A stretch of 64,000 nucleotides of DNA from an uncultured delta proteobacterium (GCA_963845195.1 CAWJRH010000004.1:1638104-1702103), one strand, 5' to 3'. Counted from the stretch's first letter, positions 9,337 to 23,746 are shown. Notes: generated by a model from the sequence alone, not told the origin. A program made the numbers and translations.

Positions 9337-9504
9337 GACTCACTCATGACACGGCGTCAAGTGACGCATGCTGCAGCAGCAGTTCCATCAGGGACTCCAA
9401 CGAAGCAGCCTTACTGAGCGTAGACACGGTGGCGGGGGCAAACGAGCCCACCGCCATCGTGTTTGCCTGATCTTGGGGGAAGTGACTCGCATCTCTCGAA
9501 TTTC

Positions 9505-10653
9505 ATGAATTACTCATTCCTTTTTCTGTCTGCCGCCACGCTCCTACTCGCGACCACGCTTGTCGGCTGCGCCGACGATGCTCCGAGCGAAGAGACCTTC
9601 CGCGGCGTTCGAATCGACCTAGTCATTGGGGATGTCGACGTGCCCGCGCTGACTTTTGATGTCATCTGCGAGGATGGCTTCGAGCTGAGCGGACAGTTCA
9701 ACGTGAACGACGACCTCGATCCGCCCGTCTGGTCCGCGCTCATGGACCTGCCCGTTGGCGACTGCAGCATCACGCTCACGGCGCCCGACGACGAGGGCAT
9801 CCCTATCTGTTCCGGCTCTTCCGATTTCACGGTGCGCCTCAACGAGACGGCGAAGGTCAACGTCGTGCTGACGTGCTTCGTCAACTCGCACGACGAAGGC
9901 GAGCCTGAGTGCGTCACCCTCCCCGACTGCGAGCTGGTCTGGGCCGACGAGTTCAATGGCGATGCCGTGGACCTGACGAAGTGGGAGTTCCAACTCGGCG
10001 ACGGAACTCAGTTCGGCATCCCGCGCTGGGGCAACCAAGAGCTCCAGTGGTACATGTCGAGAAACGCCACCGTGGCAGACGGCGTCTTGACCATCCAGGC
10101 ACGAGAAGAACGTATTGGACGCTTCAACTACACCTCATCGCGTCTTCGCTCTCTCGGCAAAGGTGACTGGACGTACGGTCGCTTCGAGATGCGCGCGAAG
10201 CTGCCGGTAGGGCAAGGCATGTGGCCCGCGTTTTGGATGCTGTCGAGCGACCCCTCAATTTACGGCGAGTGGGCCGCAAGCGGCGAGATCGACATCATGG
10301 AATCAACCGGCGACGACCCGGACAGAATCCTCGCCACGATTCACTACGGCCGCACGGCACCCGAAAACGAGTCTTCTAGCTCCAGCACACGGCTCCCCGA
10401 AGGGGGCGCGAGCGAGTTTCACGAGTACGCCATCGAGTGGAAGGCCGGCCAAATCGACTGGTACCTCGACGGTGAACTCTATGCCACGCGCACTAGCTGG
10501 TACTCGAGCGGCGGGCCCTATCCTGCGCCTTTCGACGTCGACTTTCATCTCCTTCTCAACCTCGCCGTAGGCGGCAATCTGCCGGGCGACCCGGACGCAA
10601 CAACCGTCTTTCCGCAGGACTTCGTCATCGACTACGTGCGGGTCTACCAATAG
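9505..10653 (+). CDS. GH16 endo-beta-1,3-glucanase (laminarinase) lipoprotein with the shared N-terminal module
   Basis: The start is taken at ATG 9505 (MNYSFLFLSAATLLLATTLVGC|ADD). GH16 motifs are WADEFNG and the catalytic ExDxxE in GEIDIMES. The protein ends DYVRVYQ. Confidence 0.9.
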   Translation: MNYSFLFLSAATLLLATTLVGCADDAPSEETFRGVRIDLVIGDVDVPALTFDVICEDGFELSGQFNVNDDLDPPVWSALMDLPVGDCSITLTAPDDEGIPICSGSSDFTVRLNETAKVNVVLTCFVNSHDEGEPECVTLPDCELVWADEFNGDAVDLTKWEFQLGDGTQFGIPRWGNQELQWYMSRNATVADGVLTIQAREERIGRFNYTSSRLRSLGKGDWTYGRFEMRAKLPVGQGMWPAFWMLSSDPSIYGEWAASGEIDIMESTGDDPDRILATIHYGRTAPENESSSSSTRLPEGGASEFHEYAIEWKAGQIDWYLDGELYATRTSWYSSGGPYPAPFDVDFHLLLNLAVGGNLPGDPDATTVFPQDFVIDYVRVYQ

Positions 10654-13576: not shown

Positions 13577-14986
13577 TCAGTCTGACGGGTCGACCCGCCT
13601 ATAGACCCTGACGTAGTCCACAAGCATCGTCTGGGGATAGGTCTCGGTGCCCGTGGGCGGTTGGTTGTTGCTGCCCAGTGTCCCGCCCATCGCGACGTTG
13701 AAGATCATGTAGAACTCTTCGAGGAACTCGCTCATCGTCTCTGGATTGATCGACTTGACAAAGTAAGTAATCCCGTCGATTTTGCCGACGATCTTGCTCT
13801 CGTCCCATTCGGCCCCGAAGAGGTGAAAGTCATCGCCAAGTGAGGTGTCGAAGGACTTGTTGGCGCTGACGAAGACCCGCCCTTCAGGAAACGAACAGGT
13901 CTCCGGAGCCTGGATCGACTCGTCGCACCAGTGGATCGTGAAATGCGTCGTTCTCTCGTTTGAGAACGCGTTGTGAAGCTCCATGAAGTCGATTTCGCCC
14001 GAGCGTGGCCACCCCACGGTCGGGAAGTTCGCTCCGAGTGCCCAGAACGCGGGCCACGCGGCCCTCCCAACGGGGGCCTTGATCCGGGCCTCTACTTTGC
14101 CGAACTTGAAATTGACCTTGTTGAGGGAATTGATCTTTCCTGATGTAATCGTTCCATCGCGGACACCGCAGGGCGGCGCAGGACACAACGCGGAGAGCAC
14201 CAGGTTGCCATCTTCGACGCGCACGTTGTCTGGCGACTCCGTATAGAGCTGCCACTCGTTGTTGCCCCATCCTTCGTTGCCGTATCCGGTCTCGATGGTC
14301 CAGTTGGTCGGATTCGGAGCCGTTCCCGAATCAAAGCCATCCTCGAAAACCAGCTCGTACTCGACATCGCTTGGCGGGCAGCCGTCTGACTGCGTGATCC
14401 CGTCGTAGTAGAATGTCCAGTCATCCGGATCGTTGCCCGCATCGCCGGTGACTCCCAGGTCAAAGATGACCGTGATTGCCGTAGCTTCGTCCCCGTCGGT
14501 GCCATCCGCGAAGTCGAAACATAGCTCTTCCCAGGCACCGCTCCCGCCATGCGCGGCCGGTCGCTCTTGCTCCAACCCCTCGAGCTTGAACAGTACGTCT
14601 GCGGGACGTGTGGACCAGACCTTCATCGTGAAGGCCGTGCCCGACCCCCAATCGACCGAATCGTCGAGCATGAGCGTGCTTCCGCCAAACACCTCGCCGG
14701 GGAATTTCTGCATTCTTGCAGCCTTGGGCGTCGCGTTGATTCCGCTCGGATCGGGATTGTCGACCACTCTCGACACGCCCCCGCCGAAATCAACGAAGGT
14801 GAACGGACCGCACGCGTCCTCGAACTCGACCGCGTCTGCGCAGTTCGCTGGTGGGGGTTCAGGGCGCTCAGGGCGCTCAGGCTCCTCGGTGGAGCCGACG
14901 CTTTCGTTGCTACAGCCGACCAAGCCGGCAATCAGCAAGAGAGAAACGCACACGCGCGGAAGCGGCGAGCGGTGTTTGGTGTACAT
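13577..14986 (-). CDS. GH16 endo-beta-1,3-glucanase (laminarinase) lipoprotein with an N-terminal CBM-like domain
   Basis: The lipobox is IAGLVGC|SNE. A ~170-aa beta-sandwich-like N-terminal domain precedes the GH16 catalytic ExDxxE in GEIDFMEL. The protein ends DYVRVYR. Confidence 0.9.
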   Translation of the reverse strand: MYTKHRSPLPRVCVSLLLIAGLVGCSNESVGSTEEPERPERPEPPPANCADAVEFEDACGPFTFVDFGGGVSRVVDNPDPSGINATPKAARMQKFPGEVFGGSTLMLDDSVDWGSGTAFTMKVWSTRPADVLFKLEGLEQERPAAHGGSGAWEELCFDFADGTDGDEATAITVIFDLGVTGDAGNDPDDWTFYYDGITQSDGCPPSDVEYELVFEDGFDSGTAPNPTNWTIETGYGNEGWGNNEWQLYTESPDNVRVEDGNLVLSALCPAPPCGVRDGTITSGKINSLNKVNFKFGKVEARIKAPVGRAAWPAFWALGANFPTVGWPRSGEIDFMELHNAFSNERTTHFTIHWCDESIQAPETCSFPEGRVFVSANKSFDTSLGDDFHLFGAEWDESKIVGKIDGITYFVKSINPETMSEFLEEFYMIFNVAMGGTLGSNNQPPTGTETYPQTMLVDYVRVYRRVDPSD

Positions 14987-17031: not shown

Positions 17032-19089
17032 CTAGGGTGTTGGCGCCGAGGTAAGCACGAGGTTGTCGTAGAACACCCCGGACGGCTGGTTGTTCGTCGT
17101 CGTCGCCGAGAATCCAAACTGAAGAATTTGGCCTACGAGCGCTGGGACGATTGGGAGTGAGATGGAGTAGGTGTTCCAGTCTGTCGAAATGCTGGTCGTA
17201 TCGACCGTCACCAAGTTGGTTTGGTCGAAGGCGGGCGGGGCCAGCGTTTTGATGAACGCATACGCCTCGCTTGTGCCCGAGATGTCGCCACGTTTCGCCT
17301 GGAACTCGAACGTGAGCGTATTCCCCACATCGGTCCCTGCGATCGTGAATTCCTGGAACGTAAGCCCCTCGACGTTGTTGCCAGCGGTCTGATTGGCCTG
17401 GTTCTGGTAGTCGCTGATGATGACCAGCTGCTGAGCACCCTGCTCAGGACCACCTTCCCCCGCTGCGATGAGCGAGAAGGCAGCCTGCGGTGGGTTGTTT
17501 GGCGCAGGAAACGTTCCGTAGAAGGCGATGACCGTATCCGTCATGCCCTCGAACACGTTGCCGAACACCAGGAATCCGACATCACCCAACGCGGTCAGGC
17601 TCGCTTGGTTGAGCGATTCGAAGTTCTGCGAGTAGACGACCTCAGCATTCGGCTCACAGACCCCAGCGCTGCAGGTGCCCGTGCCGCCCTCGCACGAATC
17701 GGTGTTGTTCGAGGTTCCGCAGTTCCCTGCGTTGCACACCGCGTCCACACACTCGTTGCCTGTGTCAGGGCAGTCCGCGTTCACCGTGCATTCCGGGTCC
17801 GGTACGCAAAGGCCTCCGTCGCAGGTACCGTTCCCGCCGTCGCACACGTTCGTGTTGTTCGAGGTCCCGCAGGTCCCCGCGTTGCACACTGCGTCCACAC
17901 ACTCGTTGCCGGTGTCCGGACAGTCCGCGTTCACCGTGCATTCCGAGTCCGGTACGCAAACGCCTCCTTCGCAGGTGCCGTTCCCGCCGTCACACACGTT
18001 GGTGTTGTTCGAGGTTCCGCAGGTCCCCGCGTTGCACACCGCGTCCACACACTCGTTGCCCGTGTCCGGGCAGTCCGCCGCGGTGCTGCATTCCGCGTCG
18101 GAGACGCAGTTGCCCTGCCCATCGCAGGTTCCGTTGCCGCCGTCGCAGACGTTGGTGTTGTTGGAGGTCTCGCAGGTCCCCGCGTTGCACACCGCGTCCA
18201 CACACTCGTTGCCCGTGTCCGGGCAGTCCGCCGCGGTGCTGCATTCTGGCGGCGCTTCGATACACATCCCGTCAACGCAGGTCTCGCCCGCATCGCAGTC
18301 GTCATCGACCGTGCACTCGGGAGGGGCTCCCCCGACGCCTGCCATGCCGCCCGCGCCGCCGGTTCCGCCGGTTCCGCCGGTTCCGCCGGTTCCGCCGGTT
18401 CCGCCACCATCGACGCAGCGCACTGCGACTGTCCATCCGCTTACGCAGACGTCGAAGTCGTCATCAGACACCTTGATCGTCACTGACTGATCGCCCGCCG
18501 TTCCGCAGGTGTATGTGGTCGAGCTTGCGCCCGGGTCGGCAATCGTGCCGCCGGTCGCGCTCCACATGTACCGGCTCGCGTCGCCTTCCGCATCGACGGC
18601 GGTTGCCATGAGATCGATGTCGTTTCCGACCGAGGTCTGTAGTGGAGAGACGACCACTTTGGTCAGCTCGGCGCAGATGTTGAGCTTCCCGTTTACGCGA
18701 ACCGAACCGAACTGCGGAGGCCGAGTGCAGCGAAGCATCACGTGCACCTCGGTCGCAGCGCCGACCTCGACTCCGAACGGAGCCGATCCTCGGCAGACTG
18801 TGCCGTCCGCCGCCGCCGCAGCCATCTCGATTTCGTAGTCGTCGCAGGCCGGTAGCCCGAACACCTCGACCGAGGCTGTCGCCTCCGGAGCGCTGACATC
18901 GATGGTGCCGACCATGGACGGCATGTCGCAGCCGCTGATCTCCCAATCGACCTCCGCGATCTCGACTCCGTCGGCAAGGGTGAGGTTCAGCGCAAGCGAC
19001 CCTGTGTCCGGGTCGGCATCGGTCGAGCAAGCACCGACCCCCATGAGACTGGCTACACCGAAAACGAGAGCGAACGTGGAGCGGTTCAT
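17032..19089 (-). CDS. surface lipoprotein, paralog of 6941..9274: 4-Cys N-terminal module, (GGT)n linker, four Cys-rich repeats, C-terminal CBM-like domain
   Basis: The lipobox is MGVGAC|ST. There are four copies of EC(S/T)xxADCPDTGNECVDAVCNAGTCGTSNNTNVCDGGNGTC. The C-terminal AEVVYSQNFESL... is homologous to the C-terminus of 6941..9274. Confidence 0.8.
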   Translation of the reverse strand: MNRSTFALVFGVASLMGVGACSTDADPDTGSLALNLTLADGVEIAEVDWEISGCDMPSMVGTIDVSAPEATASVEVFGLPACDDYEIEMAAAAADGTVCRGSAPFGVEVGAATEVHVMLRCTRPPQFGSVRVNGKLNICAELTKVVVSPLQTSVGNDIDLMATAVDAEGDASRYMWSATGGTIADPGASSTTYTCGTAGDQSVTIKVSDDDFDVCVSGWTVAVRCVDGGGTGGTGGTGGTGGTGGAGGMAGVGGAPPECTVDDDCDAGETCVDGMCIEAPPECSTAADCPDTGNECVDAVCNAGTCETSNNTNVCDGGNGTCDGQGNCVSDAECSTAADCPDTGNECVDAVCNAGTCGTSNNTNVCDGGNGTCEGGVCVPDSECTVNADCPDTGNECVDAVCNAGTCGTSNNTNVCDGGNGTCDGGLCVPDPECTVNADCPDTGNECVDAVCNAGNCGTSNNTDSCEGGTGTCSAGVCEPNAEVVYSQNFESLNQASLTALGDVGFLVFGNVFEGMTDTVIAFYGTFPAPNNPPQAAFSLIAAGEGGPEQGAQQLVIISDYQNQANQTAGNNVEGLTFQEFTIAGTDVGNTLTFEFQAKRGDISGTSEAYAFIKTLAPPAFDQTNLVTVDTTSISTDWNTYSISLPIVPALVGQILQFGFSATTTNNQPSGVFYDNLVLTSAPTP
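17646..18250 (-). repeat. four tandem ~49-50-codon Cys-rich coding repeats plus a degenerate half repeat
   Basis: The repeats are visible in both the translation and the DNA. Segment 17865-17922 is the reverse complement of 8360-8417 with 57/58 identity by manual alignment. Confidence 0.85.
18361..18405 (-). repeat. perfect 9-bp tandem repeat (ggttccgcc) x5 encoding (GGT)5
   Basis: Read directly from ggttccgccggttccgccggttccgccggttccgccggttccgcc. It is in frame inside gene 17032..19089. Confidence 0.9.
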
Positions 19090-19204: not shown

Positions 19205-20662
19205 TCACAAAACGAAGGCCACGGGCCACCCGCGTCGGAAGAGTGCGTCTACTTTCCCTCGCAGGCCGCGATGTCGTCCTGAGTGACTCCCGAGATCCGC
19301 TGCGGCCGCTTTGAGCTCCTGGGCAGTCGCGTCCGCGCTCTGTGCCTCGTTTACCGCCTCGCCGACCTCCGCGACCCCCGCCCGCCCCGCGCTCTTCGAC
19401 GCGACGCTGAGAAGTCGTCCAAGACCCCTCTTCCGCTTCTTCGCGGCCTCGGCGGCAGCCATTCGCTCTTTCAGGCAGGCCTCTTGTGCTGGCGTCATCG
19501 AGCTCGACGCGCCGGCTGAGGGTGCTGCCCCGGCAGGGGTTGCCGAACGCTGGCTGTCCGAAACGGCGGCCGGCACCTTGGCCGCAGGGGGTCCGCCGTT
19601 GCACCGAATGCTGATGATACGGGACTCGATCTCCATCCCGCCGCCTGCGGCAAGGCTCTCGAGCATCTTTCGCTGCGGTCCCATCTGATTCATGACCATC
19701 TCACGCTGCTCGGGCGGCATCGAGGCCATCTGCTTGTCGAAATCTGCGAGCTTGGCTCGGGCCTCCTCAAGCTGGGCTTTGTCTTCAGCGTTCAGCATGC
19801 CGGACATCTTCATCACGGAGACGAAGGGTTCGTACATGCCGCCGCAGCCGGGGACCTCTCGATAGTCCCTGTCGTTCCGCTCGAGGACGATCGGGCGCGT
19901 CTCGGTACCCTGGCGCATCGTGCCTTCGATTCTCATTCGCACCGGTACGTACCGCTTCGCGTCGACCCACATCCGTACACGATCCACTTCAAACTCGCCC
20001 TCGTCGACGCGTTGCTTCGTCCCCTCACCCTTTGACTCGACAACGATCGTCTTCTTGCCATCAACGGTCTCCCGACCGACGACCTTCGACCGCGCCTTCA
20101 TCCTCTGAAGGTCTTTCGACAACTGTTTTGAATCCGCCTTGGCGTCGGCGGAGCGCTGACGCTCGCCCTCGGCCGCGCCGCCGAGCATCGTCGCGTACAT
20201 GCCGGTCATGTCGCTCGGGTTCGCCGAAAGCCAGGGCTCGTCCTCATTCGACGCGATCAGCATGTCGCCCACGCCTGGTGGCAGCCCTGCGGACTGCATC
20301 TCCTGGTGCATCCCCTGTTCCATCTGCGCCCCTGCCCCAGGCATCGCCGCTGCGGCGCGATCGAGGTCCCCGGCGGTCGCACCGGTGGTTGAGGATCCGC
20401 TCACCGGAACGCTCCGCATCACGTACGCGGTTTGTCCGTTGCTCAGCCGCACCTGCGCCTCCTTTTCGAAGTACGAGAGCGTCTCAACCCCCATCACCTC
20501 GACTTGCATCACGTAATTGTCGATGCCCTCGAGGGCTTCGTTGTCGGCGCGGATCATCTTGTCGATTACCTGCTCGGCCGACTGCCCGTGGGCCGACCCA
20601 GAGGCCGCAACAACGGCAAAAAGCGACGCTGCGACGGCTACAAGGTTCCGAGCTGTTCGCAT
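19205..20662 (-). CDS. secreted Met-rich hypothetical protein (possible 3'-end frameshift)
   Basis: It has the signal peptide MRTARNLVAVAASLFAVVAASGSAHG. Met-rich stretches include AQMEQGMHQEMQ and MASMPPEQREMVMNQMGPQRKM. The last ~27 codons are Arg-rich with low GC3. The +1 frame reads GVTQDDIAACEGK* with high GC3 and ends at 19249. Confidence 0.6.
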   Translation of the reverse strand: MRTARNLVAVAASLFAVVAASGSAHGQSAEQVIDKMIRADNEALEGIDNYVMQVEVMGVETLSYFEKEAQVRLSNGQTAYVMRSVPVSGSSTTGATAGDLDRAAAAMPGAGAQMEQGMHQEMQSAGLPPGVGDMLIASNEDEPWLSANPSDMTGMYATMLGGAAEGERQRSADAKADSKQLSKDLQRMKARSKVVGRETVDGKKTIVVESKGEGTKQRVDEGEFEVDRVRMWVDAKRYVPVRMRIEGTMRQGTETRPIVLERNDRDYREVPGCGGMYEPFVSVMKMSGMLNAEDKAQLEEARAKLADFDKQMASMPPEQREMVMNQMGPQRKMLESLAAGGGMEIESRIISIRCNGGPPAAKVPAAVSDSQRSATPAGAAPSAGASSSMTPAQEACLKERMAAAEAAKKRKRGLGRLLSVASKSAGRAGVAEVGEAVNEAQSADATAQELKAAAADLGSHSGRHRGLRGKVDALFRRGWPVAFVL

Positions 20663-20878: not shown

Positions 20879-21520
20879 ATGATGAAGAGTTCAAGTCTAC
20901 GAATCGGGGCCACACTTGCGCTGTGCTCCGGGCTGCTGCTGTCGACCGGATGTGTGAAGAAGTCCGAGTACAACGCGCTCATGGACCAGTACAACGAAGC
21001 AGTCGCCAAGCAGGAGAAGCTTACCGGAGTCGTCGTGGAGCAGGACGCAGAGCTCGCCTCGCTTGAAAGCGACTACAACCGACTGGCAACCCTGTTTGCG
21101 GCGGAAATCGCAGCGCAGGAGCTTCAGGTCGAGCAACTGGTAGACGGCATCGAGGTCGAGATTCCTTCTGACGTCATGTACGCGTCCGGGTCGGCGACCG
21201 CGACGGTCGGCAGCGACGGGCTCGAGTACGCCGAGAAGCTCGCCGGTTTCCTCGCCGACACCGACTACATCGTCAGCGTGATCGGTCACACGGACAATCA
21301 GAAAATCTCGAAGGCTCTCGCGCAGAAGTACCCGACGAACTGGGAGCTGGCCGGGGCCCGGGCCGCGAACGCCGCGCGCTTCTTGGTCTCGAAGGGCGTC
21401 GACCCGGAGAACGTGCTCGCCGTCTCACGCGGACAGTTCGATCCGGTTGCCTCGAACAAGACCGCCGAGGGCCGAGCGCAGAACCGCCGCATCGAGATCG
21501 TTCTTCGTAACCTTCCCTAG
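20879..21520 (+). CDS. OmpA/MotB-family peptidoglycan-binding lipoprotein with a coiled-coil N-terminal region
   Basis: The start is ATG 20879 (MMKSSSLRIGATLALCSGLLLSTGC). OmpA-like C-terminal motifs are VIGHTDN, NWELAGARAANAARFL and NRRIEIVL. Confidence 0.85.
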   Translation: MMKSSSLRIGATLALCSGLLLSTGCVKKSEYNALMDQYNEAVAKQEKLTGVVVEQDAELASLESDYNRLATLFAAEIAAQELQVEQLVDGIEVEIPSDVMYASGSATATVGSDGLEYAEKLAGFLADTDYIVSVIGHTDNQKISKALAQKYPTNWELAGARAANAARFLVSKGVDPENVLAVSRGQFDPVASNKTAEGRAQNRRIEIVLRNLP

Positions 21521-21534
21521 GCAGCGAGGGGTGG

Positions 21535-21559
21535 GGAGGCAGCCGTTGGCGCTGCCTCC
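21535..21559 (+). terminator. putative terminator hairpin after the OmpA-like gene
   Basis: GGAGGCAGC-cgttggc-GCTGCCTCC forms a perfect 9-bp stem 15 nt after the stop codon. Confidence 0.45.
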
Positions 21560-21718
21560 TCGTCCGGAATCTCCTATGATTCCGCGCCCCGATTCGCCCT
21601 CACACCGGCCCGAGACCAGGAATCGCACCCGCGCGAGTGAAGCCTCGTACTTGCGTCGATGTCACGGCTCTGACAGCGGGTTTTTGACACCGCCTGCCTG
21701 CCTTGTTTTGGTGTAACC

Positions 21719-22321
21719 ATGGCGCCGAGTTCCCCTTCCTCACGACCGTATTGGACAGTCAGGCTTCTGACATGTCTCGCGGTGGCTCTTTGTGGCGTCG
21801 TGGCCACAGAGGGAGCGGTTCGCGCGGACCGTGCAATCGGTGGACCTTGGATTCTCATCGATACCCAGGCGCGAAGCCTCTCTGTGTACGACGGGGACGC
21901 CCTGCTGGACCGATTCGAGAACATCGCCATTGGCCGCAACGGATTCGCCGAGGATCGAGTACGGGGCGACGGAACAACGCCGCTCGGAACCTTCCACATC
22001 AATCGTATTCGACGCAGTTCGCGGTTCTTGAAGTTTTTTCGAATCGACTACCCGCTCCCCGAGCACGCCGAACGGGCCCTCGAAACCGGTCGCATCAGCA
22101 CCGCCGACTACGAGCGCATCGTCCGGGCCTTCGAGGAGAACCGACCTCCGCCTCAGAATACCCCCCTTGGGGGCCAGCTCGGATTGCACGGCGTCGGTGG
22201 CGGGGACCCACGGATTCACGAGGCCTTCGACTGGACCAAGGGCTGCGTCGCTCTGACGAACGCCCAGGTCGAGAGGCTCTCCCAGTGGATGTATCTCGGG
22301 ATGCCGGTCCAGATTCGCTGA
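21719..22321 (+). CDS. YkuD-domain protein of the YafK (DpaA/LdtF)-like type
   Basis: It has a signal peptide. Motifs are GDGTTPLGTFHI, QLGLHG and DWTKGCVALTNAQVERL...GMPVQI, which match the YafK-type layout (HG...DWTxGC(I/V)A). This was recognised by eye only. Confidence 0.75.
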   Translation: MAPSSPSSRPYWTVRLLTCLAVALCGVVATEGAVRADRAIGGPWILIDTQARSLSVYDGDALLDRFENIAIGRNGFAEDRVRGDGTTPLGTFHINRIRRSSRFLKFFRIDYPLPEHAERALETGRISTADYERIVRAFEENRPPPQNTPLGGQLGLHGVGGGDPRIHEAFDWTKGCVALTNAQVERLSQWMYLGMPVQIR

Positions 22322-22354
22322 CCGCTCGATCTCGCATGCTCGCCTAAACGGCTG

Positions 22355-22382
22355 TTGTCTCGGTCTCGTCGCTGGATATACT
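22355..22382 (+). promoter_or_regulatory. sigma70-like promoter candidate for the lpp-like gene (TTGTCT-N16-TATACT)
   Basis: Read directly, about 50 nt upstream of the start codon. The RBS AGGAGAGG lies at 22416-22423. Confidence 0.3.
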
Positions 22383-22428
22383 CGCCCGGCTGCGGGCAGC
22401 TCTCGCGGCCCAAGCAGGAGAGGAACAA

Positions 22429-22740
22429 GTGATGACGAGGAAAGCACTGAACTGTCTCATGGCAGCAACCCTACTTACCGCTTCGGCGTCGTTGGTGGGA
22501 TGCGCTTCATCAGACATCGATCAGCTCCGCTCGGAGCTGGCAGACGTCCGGACGCTCGCCAACCAGGCGAACACGACCGCGGACCAGGCGCTTCAAGAAG
22601 CGCGCGCCGCAAACACGACCGCCGGCGAGGCCAAAGCGTCGGCCGATCGAGCCAGCGCTGCGGCGGCTCAGGCGCAATCGGCGTCGGCGGCTACCAATGA
22701 GAAGCTCGACGCGATGTTCGAAAAGAAGATGCGCAAGTAG
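22429..22740 (+). CDS. lpp: Braun lipoprotein (Lpp)-like alanine-zipper lipoprotein ending in C-terminal Lys
   Basis: The lipobox is SLVGC|ASS. The N-terminus of the mature protein, CASSDIDQLRSELADVRTL, compares with E. coli CSSNAKIDQLSSDVQTL. The C-terminus NEKLDAMFEKKMRK compares with NQRLDNMATKYRK. The start could be GTG 22429 or ATG 22432. Confidence 0.7.
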   Translation: MMTRKALNCLMAATLLTASASLVGCASSDIDQLRSELADVRTLANQANTTADQALQEARAANTTAGEAKASADRASAAAAQAQSASAATNEKLDAMFEKKMRK

Positions 22741-22777
22741 TACGCGCCCTCTTCGGTCGATACGGGGCCGACACCCG

Positions 22778-23746
22778 TCAGGGCGCTGCAACCGCTTTTA
22801 CTGCCGTTGCTTGTGCGATGGGTGTCGGTATTCCCGTCCTCCGTTCGACGGCGCGCTTCAGCGCGTTCGCATTGAGTTCGAACGGTCGGCGCCGCGACTC
22901 AGCTTCAATCACCAGACGTGCGCGCTCCTGCAACGCCGCCAAGCTTTCGGTCTGGCCGGCGACAGCATGTACCTCGATGTACAGCAGGTCGTTTAGCCAA
23001 CCGATCTTGATCGGCTGATCGACAATCGCAACGCGCGTTCCGACGGACACCAATCCGTATAGCTGCTCGATATCGTCTGGATACATTCGAACGCAGCCGT
23101 GAGTCACACTCATGCCGATCCCCGAAGGCCGGTTGGTCCCGTGAATGAGGTATCCCGGCAACCCAAGCCGGATGGCGAACTTGCCGAGCGGGTTGTCCGG
23201 GCCCGGAGGAACGACCTGCGGCAGCTCGTCCCCGTCGTTGGCATGTTCCTCGATGATCGACTCCGGCGGCCGCCAGCTCGGGTCTTCGGTCTTGCGGACC
23301 ACCGCGGTTTCCCCAAGCGGCGTGGCCCAGTCCATGCGGCCGATGCTCACGGCGTACGTATGCACGATGTTTGGCAGACCGGGTACGGGCGGAGGGTAGT
23401 AGTAAAGCCTCATCTCCGGAACGTTGAGCACGAGGCCCCTGCGTTCGCTGCGCGGAAGGATGTACGCAGTAGGTAGCGTAATCCTCGCACCGTCATCGAC
23501 GAGCCATCGATCGACCGAAGGGTTTGCGAAGACGAGTTCGTCCTGGCCGACCTTGTGCTGTACAGCAATGTCGACGAGCGTTTCGTCCGGCGCCGCAGAG
23601 ACGACGAAAAGTGCACCGACGACTTCGGCCGGCGCGGCGGGGACGGTCAGGCGCTGGGCGAGCGCCGGCGCCACGGAGGCCAAAATCAAGAGGGTGGCGA
23701 CGCACAGCCCTGCACTTCGTATCGTCGTCCCCGTAGCTCGTCGCAT
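22778..23746 (-). CDS. LysM + YkuD L,D-transpeptidase (ErfK/YbiS/YcfS/YnhG family)
   Basis: A signal peptide is followed by a LysM-like segment (DETLVDIAVQHKVGQDELVFANP). The catalytic motif is YLIHGTNRPSGIGMSVTHGCVRM. Confidence 0.85.
   Translation of the reverse strand: MRRATGTTIRSAGLCVATLLILASVAPALAQRLTVPAAPAEVVGALFVVSAAPDETLVDIAVQHKVGQDELVFANPSVDRWLVDDGARITLPTAYILPRSERRGLVLNVPEMRLYYYPPPVPGLPNIVHTYAVSIGRMDWATPLGETAVVRKTEDPSWRPPESIIEEHANDGDELPQVVPPGPDNPLGKFAIRLGLPGYLIHGTNRPSGIGMSVTHGCVRMYPDDIEQLYGLVSVGTRVAIVDQPIKIGWLNDLLYIEVHAVAGQTESLAALQERARLVIEAESRRRPFELNANALKRAVERRTGIPTPIAQATAVKAVAAP

Follow-up and report, generated by a model that had tools for sequence, protein, structure and literature searches.

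The question raised by the locus described here is whether a covalent outer membrane-peptidoglycan tether of the Braun lipoprotein kind, together with the enzymes that would attach and release it, is encoded by neighbouring genes in a bacterium that is not an enterobacterium. The locus lies in a 64,000-nucleotide stretch of DNA from an uncultured delta proteobacterium (GCA_963845195.1, CAWJRH010000004.1:1638104-1702103), which in its full length we call the window. A first-pass annotation of the window had described four consecutive genes as a complete tethering toolkit, namely an OmpA-domain lipoprotein, a YafK/DpaA-like YkuD protein, an Lpp-like lipoprotein ending in Lys and an L,D-transpeptidase (Ldt) with a LysM domain. 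All four open reading frames (ORFs) are present exactly where they had been placed, and the catalytic motifs quoted for the two enzymes, DWTKGCVAL and HGCVRM, are correct. In our reading, to which we give a probability of roughly 60%, the segment from 21719 to 23746 holds three genes that together form a module for tethering the outer membrane to peptidoglycan covalently and reversibly, of the Braun-lipoprotein/OprI kind, consisting of a small hydrolase-type YkuD protein (YkuD200), the lipoprotein and the transpeptidase (Ldt322). This reading stands on the identities of the genes, the families to which the lipoprotein and Ldt322 belong, the catalytic residues, the conserved terminal Lys and the linkage of the three genes across phyla (Table 1).

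Table 1. Features of the window discussed in the text, the three-gene locus first (aa, amino acids; positions counted from the first nucleotide of the window).
Feature	Position	Strand	Properties
YkuD200, single-domain periplasmic YkuD protein	21719-22321	+	200 aa; signal peptide; Pfam YkuD PF03734, 68.8 bits
Lpp/OprI-family alanine-zipper lipoprotein	22429-22740 (start GTG 22429 or ATG 22432)	+	102-103 aa; PF11839 and NF040598
L,D-transpeptidase Ldt322	22778-23746	-	322 aa; signal peptide; Pfam YkuD PF03734, 70 bits
Sigma-70-like promoter match	22355-22382	+	TTGTCT-16-TATACT; ~50 bp upstream of the lipoprotein gene
OmpA-domain lipoprotein	20879-21520	+	213 aa; lipobox LSTG-C; coiled-coil-like stalk of ~70 aa; C-terminal OmpA/MotB-type domain
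Secreted protein	19205-20662	-	485 aa
Probable lipoprotein with Cys-rich repeats	17032-19089	-	685 aa
Partial GH16-like match	13577-14986	-	
Partial GH16-like match	9463-10653	+	

The lipoprotein scores 45.6 bits against the Pfam family Alanine_zipper PF11839 (cutoff 23.1) and 50 bits against the NCBIfam model NF040598, "Lpp/OprI family alanine-zipper lipoprotein" (cutoff 43), which bears out its description as Lpp-like. A search with the PF04728 (LPP) profile gave no match at E<=0.1, and the protein is not a Braun lipoprotein in the strict sense of that model, on which E. coli Lpp scores 89.5 bits; E. coli Lpp reaches just 20.6 bits on PF11839, which is under the cutoff. The ORF is preceded by an AGGAG Shine-Dalgarno sequence at 22416-22420, ahead of the GTG/ATG start, and begins with a signal peptide and lipobox (ASLVG-C-ASS, residues 21-28). 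The mature protein has 79 residues, of which 29% are Ala, and a single unbroken heptad register runs over all 79 of them, with 83% of the a and d positions occupied by A, L, I, V or M, a result matched in 0 of 2000 shuffles and comparable to the 88% found in E. coli Lpp. Mature E. coli Lpp has 58 residues, so that the window lipoprotein is longer by 21 residues or exactly three heptads; mature OprI has 64.

The linkage of this gene to its neighbours was examined from both sides. A direct homologue search with the lipoprotein gave only two matches, hampered by the word index on low-complexity sequence, and hidden Markov model (HMM) searches of neighbourhoods and a motif-seeded scan of metagenomes were used instead. 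The YkuD200 family alignment (A1) was scanned over one genome per GTDB species, which yielded 572 relatives, and the best 80 loci were retained. A lipoprotein homologue was found near YkuD200 in 61 of these 80 loci by phmmer and in 70 by HMM, almost always directly downstream on the same strand, and an Ldt of the LdtA-E type was present in 51, typically convergent and right after the lipoprotein gene. In the reciprocal scan, in which metagenome contigs were seeded with the C-terminal motif of the lipoprotein (alignment A2), YkuD200 was nearby in 41 of 48 loci with enough sequence and an Ldt in 44 of 45. The trio also occurs in seven relatives that are 59-64% identical, comprising SG8_38, two other metagenome-assembled genomes (MAGs) of Polyangiales or Sandaracinaceae, one "delta proteobacterium" MAG and three metagenome contigs; across eight loci of the Myxococcota clade the trio alone is common and the flanks are wholly different. 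The grouping of YkuD200, lipoprotein and Ldt322 genes is far beyond chance, and the two-way linkage with differing flanks indicates that the unit is a three-gene cassette that does not include the OmpA gene. The neighbourhood survey proposed in the first-pass annotation thus confirmed conservation in relatives for everything except OmpA.

Among the 61 homologues found in these neighbourhoods, a simple pattern recognises a lipobox in 51, and the mature length ranges from 59 to 101 residues. The window protein ends in ...LDAMFEKKMRK, its last residue being Lys with a basic residue before it, as had been annotated. Lys is terminal in 60 of the 61 homologues, the tail consensus is DRMFKKxMxK and the Lys column of alignment A2 is invariant; the last eight residues are conserved and the remainder is very variable and of low complexity. 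This pattern bears on the possibility that the lipoprotein is free, serving a structural or surface role without a covalent bond, and that both YkuD proteins act on peptidoglycan only, their linkage then reflecting shared regulation of envelope remodelling. A passage of PMC11449479 describes a large pool of free Lpp in E. coli, which lends this possibility some substance. Against it stand the near-universal terminal Lys, the conservation of the last eight residues and the terminal Arg-Lys that the window lipoprotein shares with Lpp and OprI, in which it is the proven attachment site (PMC10434034), and we regard a free lipoprotein as improbable.

Several further features of the lipoprotein family may be recorded here. 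Some homologues (L026, L027 and L050) contain internal repeats of 14 residues, and the lengths of the homologues are natural variants that might set the width of the periplasm. Three lipoproteins carry a Cys-Cys pair ~17 residues from the C-terminus (…AQACCNAN… in L031, …NTCCTQT… in L039 and …AQACCDAN… in L040) that is found in no other homologue; L031 and L040 are Haliea/Halioglobus MAGs and L039 is an unclassified gammaproteobacterial MAG. Such a pair could give inter-chain disulfides in the lipoprotein trimer. The sigma-70-like match upstream of the window lipoprotein gene, the one match in a scan for which shuffles predicted 0.7, is a weak candidate for a promoter of its own. The fold z-score of -0.99 did not support an intrinsic terminator between the lipoprotein and Ldt322 genes.

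The OmpA-domain lipoprotein was correctly identified, with 55 bits against PF00691 (cutoff 27), a lipobox and visible GHTD and RA peptidoglycan-binding motifs; it gives partial matches to OmpA domains of the MotB/TssL/YiaD type and missed every NCBIfam equivalog cutoff. It is probably an independent, non-covalent peptidoglycan binder. A case can be made that all four genes form one co-regulated toolkit, in that they are consecutive, all encode envelope proteins, the OmpA, YkuD200 and lipoprotein genes share a strand with gaps of 198 bp (OmpA to YkuD200) and 107 bp (YkuD200 to lipoprotein), and an OmpA-domain gene lies within ~1 kb in three gammaproteobacterial loci. Those three loci are the only ones among the 80, however, and the OmpA gene is on the opposite strand in them; it is missing beside the trio in all 7 of the 7 closest relatives examined, and no tblastx match to it was found in the Polyangiales loci. 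The Ldt322 gene is on the strand opposite to the YkuD200 and lipoprotein genes, which makes a single operon impossible and disposes of a co-transcription of the whole set, and Pal/Tol genes are absent, so the set is not complete. The OmpA gene is a chance or lineage-specific neighbour outside the module. The idea of a self-contained module therefore survives for the lipoprotein, the LdtA-E-type Ldt and the hydrolase-type YkuD protein; a complete toolkit of four is an overstatement, and we consider it very improbable. No further Lpp-like or YkuD genes were found within the window.

YkuD200 carries its catalytic His157 and Cys176 within ...LGLHG...FDWTKGCVAL. H157, T173, G175, C176 and A178 are invariant in 84 of 84 sequences of the family, and G155 in 83. 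The segment TKGCVA follows the (S/T)xGChA motif, with Ala in place of the transpeptidase Arg, and this motif has been linked with DAP-protein amidases, where DAP is diaminopimelate (Winkle et al.; PMC10434034). When E. coli paralogues were compared with the YkuD200 family HMM, DpaA was the best at 22.1 bits, as against 14.2 for LdtA, in a match spanning the N-terminal sheet and the catalytic loop. The AlphaFold2 model has the YkuD fold, with a mean predicted local distance difference test score of 82. Many homologues carry the IMG label "YafK", which is a database label only. A search of 1.84 billion representatives at E<=1e-30 assigns ~205 clusters (50% identity) to the family, and its Myxococcota sequences form a 96% clade in a neighbour-joining (NJ) tree (trees were built by NJ from Kimura distances with bootstrap). 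The label YafK/DpaA-like is thus apt as regards the shared motif and the best E. coli match, and loose in that the profile is equally close to Bd1075 and Pgp2, two LD-carboxypeptidases. The most fitting description of YkuD200 is as a separate subfamily of hydrolase-type YkuD proteins rather than as a DpaA orthologue.

The genes for Ldt322 and the lipoprotein converge, with 37 bp between them. The active site of Ldt322 (...YLIHGT...SVTHGCVRM) has the catalytic His and the (S/T)xGChR motif, with Arg two residues after the Cys (C+2). The protein shares 35-37% identity with E. coli LdtA, LdtB, LdtC and LdtE, near end to end for the first three and over ~240 residues for LdtE, with BLASTP scores of 177, 158, 155 and 148 bits, respectively; residues 14-314 align with LdtA 7-306 at 37% identity. 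Matches to the NCBIfam models PRK10190, LdtE and PRK10260 are near full-length (residues 17-314 to positions 8-306 of 310 in PRK10190), at 168-188 bits, which is under the equivalog cutoffs of 480-583. Pfam Ldt_C taken alone is weak on Ldt322 (15 bits, cutoff 26.8). The profiles that the first-pass annotation had proposed for searching gave a mixed picture. YkuD was found in both enzymes, and LPP was not found in the lipoprotein, which matched PF11839 and NF040598 instead. The LysM domain annotated on Ldt322 was not recovered by Pfam even when the N-terminal segment was searched alone at E<=10; LysM is matched by E. coli LdtE (35 bits) and LdtC (26 bits) and not by LdtA. In the NJ tree the four E. 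coli enzymes form a 100% clade that excludes Ldt322, and the Myxococcota Ldts form a 99% clade. The comparisons place Ldt322 within the ErfK/YbiS/YcfS/YnhG (LdtA/B/C/E, LdtPae2) lineage.

A scheme for reversible tethering would run as follows. After export the lipoprotein would receive its lipid at Cys25 and be sorted to the outer membrane, where it would trimerise as a long alanine-zipper coiled coil. Ldt322 would attack the meso-DAP carbonyl in a tetrapeptide stem to give a thioester acyl-enzyme, with loss of D-Ala, and would pass the DAP carbonyl to the epsilon-amino group of Lys102 of the lipoprotein. YkuD200, which does not have the transpeptidase Arg, would hydrolyse the DAP-Lys bond and in this way set the ratio of bound to free lipoprotein.

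Several points weigh against this scheme. At the most general level, the covalent link, the enzyme that would make it and the amidase activity are all matters that we infer. A second group of points concerns YkuD200. It is just ~21-26% identical to DpaA, and BLAST against E. coli DpaA gives E=3e-5 in a 7-sequence database (26% over 108 aa), a value that falls short of the E<=1e-8 used by Winkle et al. The DpaA-essential K83 aligns with a variable column that holds Asp in YkuD200 and K in 25 of 84 sequences, the equivalent loop being of low confidence in the AlphaFold2 model, and YkuD200 ends directly after the catalytic domain without DpaA's C-terminal tail (residues 184-229). In Foldseek searches with the model all YkuD classes appear at template modelling scores of ~0.4-0.5, so that the classes are not discriminated. 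A phmmer search of the PDB with the single YkuD200 sequence found nothing; the family profile did match, and it places YkuD200 as near the LD-carboxypeptidases Bd1075 (26.8 bits) and Pgp2 (21.6 bits) as DpaA (22.2 bits).

These figures suggest that YkuD200 might itself be an LD-carboxypeptidase like Csd6, Pgp2 and Bd1075, trimming tetrapeptides to tripeptides and thereby limiting the donor pool of the Ldt or shaping the sacculus. Bd1075 is the best PDB match of the profile, Pgp2 and Bd1075 are among the top Foldseek matches and rank above DpaA, which stands at rank 12 yet has the highest identity (21%), and DpaA-like proteins share MEROPS C82.A01 with LD-carboxypeptidases (Winkle et al.). Pgp2 likewise has Ala at C+2 (RGCIAL), which means that this residue is not specific to amidases. 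The active-site pocket tells a different story. Two positions ahead of the catalytic His, Csd6 and Pgp2 have a Trp that lines the pocket and DpaA has Met133; in the YkuD200 family invariant Gly155 takes the place of this D-Ala-pocket Trp of LD-carboxypeptidases, which argues against a D-Ala-specific carboxypeptidase role. The YkuD200 gene is also linked more tightly to the lipoprotein gene (70/80) than to the Ldt gene (51/80), and the protein is without the additional NTF2-like domain at the C-terminus that the greater length of the Pgp2 and Bd1075 chains (286-324 aa, as against 200) implies. We think an LD-carboxypeptidase unlikely, though it is the alternative that we take most seriously.

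A further group of points concerns Ldt322 and the loci in which the trio is incomplete. Ldts that anchor and Ldts that cross-link do not fall into distinct lineages (PMC10434034), and the phylogeny proposed in the first-pass annotation did not separate the two activities: Ldt322 lies outside the E. coli LdtA/B/C/E clade and is thus co-orthologous to Lpp-anchoring and cross-linking enzymes alike, so that sequence relationships cannot tell whether it would anchor a lipoprotein or form 3-3 cross-links. LdtE, the Ldt that adjoins lpp in E. coli, makes 3-3 cross-links and does not anchor Lpp (2025 LDT review). Ten of the 80 loci, mainly from Nitrosomonas, have YkuD200 without a nearby lipoprotein, and in many Methylococcales loci YkuD200 and the lipoprotein are retained with no Ldt within 6 kb.

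Ldt322 could accordingly be a 3-3 (DAP-DAP) cross-linker like LdtE, the lipoprotein being attached by YkuD200, by an unlinked Ldt or not at all. The same convergent adjacency of E. coli lpp and ldtE, the independence of Ldt function from phylogeny (PMC10434034), the position of Ldt322 as outgroup to the four E. coli paralogues and the Methylococcales loci without an Ldt are all what one would expect if it were. Ldt322 is nonetheless marginally nearer to the Lpp-anchoring LdtA than to LdtE in BLASTP score, resembles LdtA in being without a Pfam-detectable LysM, and adjoins the lipoprotein in 44 of the 45 lipoprotein-seeded loci, while LdtPae2, the only representative of the lineage in P. aeruginosa, anchors OprI by the Lys at that lipoprotein's C-terminus (PMC10434034). 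Attachment by YkuD200 is disfavoured by the absence of the Arg or Asn found at C+2 in known transpeptidases. We judge a cross-linking role for Ldt322 to be distinctly unlikely, and favour its assignment as the anchoring enzyme of a reversible tether.

Variation among the loci takes two forms. Four of the five Nitrosomonas loci (L028, L064, L074 and L079) have a YkuD200 homologue and neither an Lpp/OprI-like ORF nor an Ldt in the sequence examined, which covered ~6 kb on either side for the first three and only ~1.4 kb downstream for L079; from these loci it follows that YkuD200 cannot depend on an adjoining lipoprotein gene everywhere. A second layout of the cassette occurs mostly in Betaproteobacteria of the Thiobacillus type (L012, L014, L016-L018, L070, L130, L133, L135, L138 and L140). 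There the YkuD and lipoprotein genes converge, and past the YkuD gene comes the Ldt gene, which has the orientation of the lipoprotein gene in those loci whose strands are reported; in the window the order is YkuD, lipoprotein and convergent Ldt.

How does this locus compare with known systems? Like the E. coli Lpp/LdtA-C/DpaA system, it combines an outer-membrane lipoprotein trimer ending in Arg-Lys, as the window protein is predicted to be, with a YkuD transpeptidase of the SxGChR type and a YkuD hydrolase of the SxGChA type. The E. coli genes had been described as all scattered around the chromosome, which does not hold for lpp (+) and ldtE (-), which in K-12 are convergent neighbours 63 bp apart (L001 4422-5726, corresponding to NC_000913.3 1757421-1758725), as the lipoprotein gene and an LdtA-E-type gene are in the window. 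The two genes may be what is left of the same ancestral cassette, though LdtE is a 3-3 cross-linker. Unlike the window, E. coli encodes its anchoring enzymes and DpaA elsewhere and has four LdtA/B/C/E paralogues, its lipoprotein matches PF04728 and not PF11839, and its DpaA, whose active site has a single entrance, is only distantly similar to YkuD200 at the identity given above. The window system resembles the P. aeruginosa OprI/LdtPae2/LdtPae3 system more closely than that of E. coli, and oprI presumably adjoins ldtPae2 in Pseudomonas. Both have an alanine-zipper lipoprotein of the PF11839/NF040598 type with a C-terminal Arg-Lys, an Ldt of the LdtPae2 lineage and a further YkuD protein, the third in P. 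aeruginosa, with the (S/T)xGChA motif, which has been proposed to release the lipoprotein in that species (PMC10434034). They differ in that the window trio is contiguous, whereas in P. aeruginosa the locus tags of the putative hydrolase (PA14_15840) and of ldtPae2 (PA14_27180) lie far apart; in that the window hydrolase is of another subfamily (200 aa, with a helical insert and without the DpaA-type C-terminal tail); and in the longer coiled coil of the lipoprotein and the myxococcotal host. The LD-carboxypeptidases H. pylori Csd6, C. jejuni Pgp2 and B. bacteriovorus Bd1075 are the nearest solved relatives of YkuD200 by profile and fold, and have the same hydrolase-type active site without the transpeptidase Arg; unlike them, YkuD200 is a single-domain protein with an invariant Gly for the pocket Trp and is coupled to the gene for a Lys-terminated lipoprotein.

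The host is indeed not an enterobacterium. GatB, encoded 13 kb from the trio, is 77-81% identical to proteins of Myxococcota, Polyangiales or "Myxococcales bacterium SG8_38", and all named top matches are from that phylum; because of this identity to Polyangiales MAGs we assign the host to the Myxococcota. The exact YkuD200 and GatB proteins are found together on one 1.9-Mb contig, so that contamination of the bin is not an issue. By record title most carriers of the cassette are Gammaproteobacteria (Methylococcales, Halieaceae, Chromatiales, Thiohalobacter, Granulosicoccaceae and Marinobacterium), and the others are the Betaproteobacteria Thiobacillus, Accumulibacter, Pseudogulbenkiania and one Nitrosomonas, the Myxococcota clade, and two MAGs that bear the labels "Desulfopila" and "delta proteobacterium". 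Cultured strains among the carriers include Methylomonas methanica NCIMB 11130 (L025), Methylomonas rivi WSC-6 (L036) and Pseudogulbenkiania subflava DSM 22618 (L014), in whose lipoproteins the terminal Lys follows His in Methylomonas and Met in Pseudogulbenkiania. The GC content of the trio and its GC content at third codon positions (GC3) equal those of the rest of the window, and a recent horizontal transfer of the trio was rejected on the grounds that both values match those of the flanking genes. In the NJ trees the Myxococcota sequences of both enzymes are placed among gammaproteobacterial branches, as is the Myxococcota clade in a midpoint-rooted NJ tree; an older transfer of the cassette may accordingly have occurred, and the placement is compatible with one but no proof of it.

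Upstream of the trio and the OmpA gene the window contains other genes of note (Table 1). The 485-aa secreted protein, whose gene is divergent from the OmpA gene, is possibly another envelope protein and gives a sub-threshold match to LolA_like PF17131 (15.9 bits, cutoff 30). In the 685-aa probable lipoprotein (…GVGAC) a (GGT)n linker is followed by Cys-rich repeats of ~45 aa, four to five in tandem, with the unit ECxxxADCPDTGNECVDAVCNAGTCGTSNNTNVCDGGNGTC; the protein showed no confident family matches. The GH16-like pair consists of partial matches to endo-beta-1,3-1,4-glycanase and kappa-carrageenase models, and hints that the DNA upstream of the envelope genes is a region for polysaccharide degradation.

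The distribution of the cassette has to be set beside published surveys. Lpp is held to be confined to four gammaproteobacterial orders, a claim for which the search of Witwinowski et al. took PF04728 at its gathering threshold, and Winkle et al., who also used PF04728, reported DpaA-like proteins in many bacteria without Lpp. Since both surveys relied on PF04728 only, a PF11839-type lipoprotein such as that of the window would have been undetectable by either. The view of Lpp tethering as a gammaproteobacterial trait, which the first-pass annotation repeated, rests on these PF04728 surveys, and OprI, which is of the PF11839 type, is already known to be anchored to peptidoglycan in Pseudomonas. 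OprI is unmentioned in the 2025 LDT review, and in the literature searched we found no description of the cassette, nor of a PF11839-type lipoprotein outside Pseudomonas. We think it possible, though short of probable, that Lpp/OprI tethering is not a recent invention of four gammaproteobacterial orders but a widespread cassette of lipoprotein, anchoring Ldt and release hydrolase, spread across the Gamma- and Betaproteobacteria and reaching the Myxococcota and Desulfobacterota, of which lpp-ldtE would be a remnant and in which the YkuD200 family of ~200 clusters would be a set of previously unrecognised lipoprotein-release amidases. If so, the function of some "DpaA-like" enzymes in supposedly Lpp-less bacteria would be explained.

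The value of the finding is mainly distributional and evolutionary, the chemistry being expected and the NCBI "Lpp/OprI family" model already curated. In more than 130 relatives a PF11839-type lipoprotein ending in Lys travels with an Ldt and a hydrolase-type YkuD protein, in Betaproteobacteria, many non-enteric Gammaproteobacteria, Myxococcota and MAGs with deltaproteobacterial or Desulfobacterota labels, which contradicts an often-repeated statement on where Lpp-type tethers exist. The three adjoining genes make up a minimal system that could be transferred to an E. coli delta-6ldt delta-lpp strain, and the range of 59-101 mature residues supplies natural variants of the coiled coil for the question of how a tether sets the width of the periplasm. 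Confirmed attachment of the lipoprotein would make it necessary to revise how outer-membrane tethering is seen phylogenetically, and the hydrolase-type YkuD proteins would gain a concrete candidate substrate.

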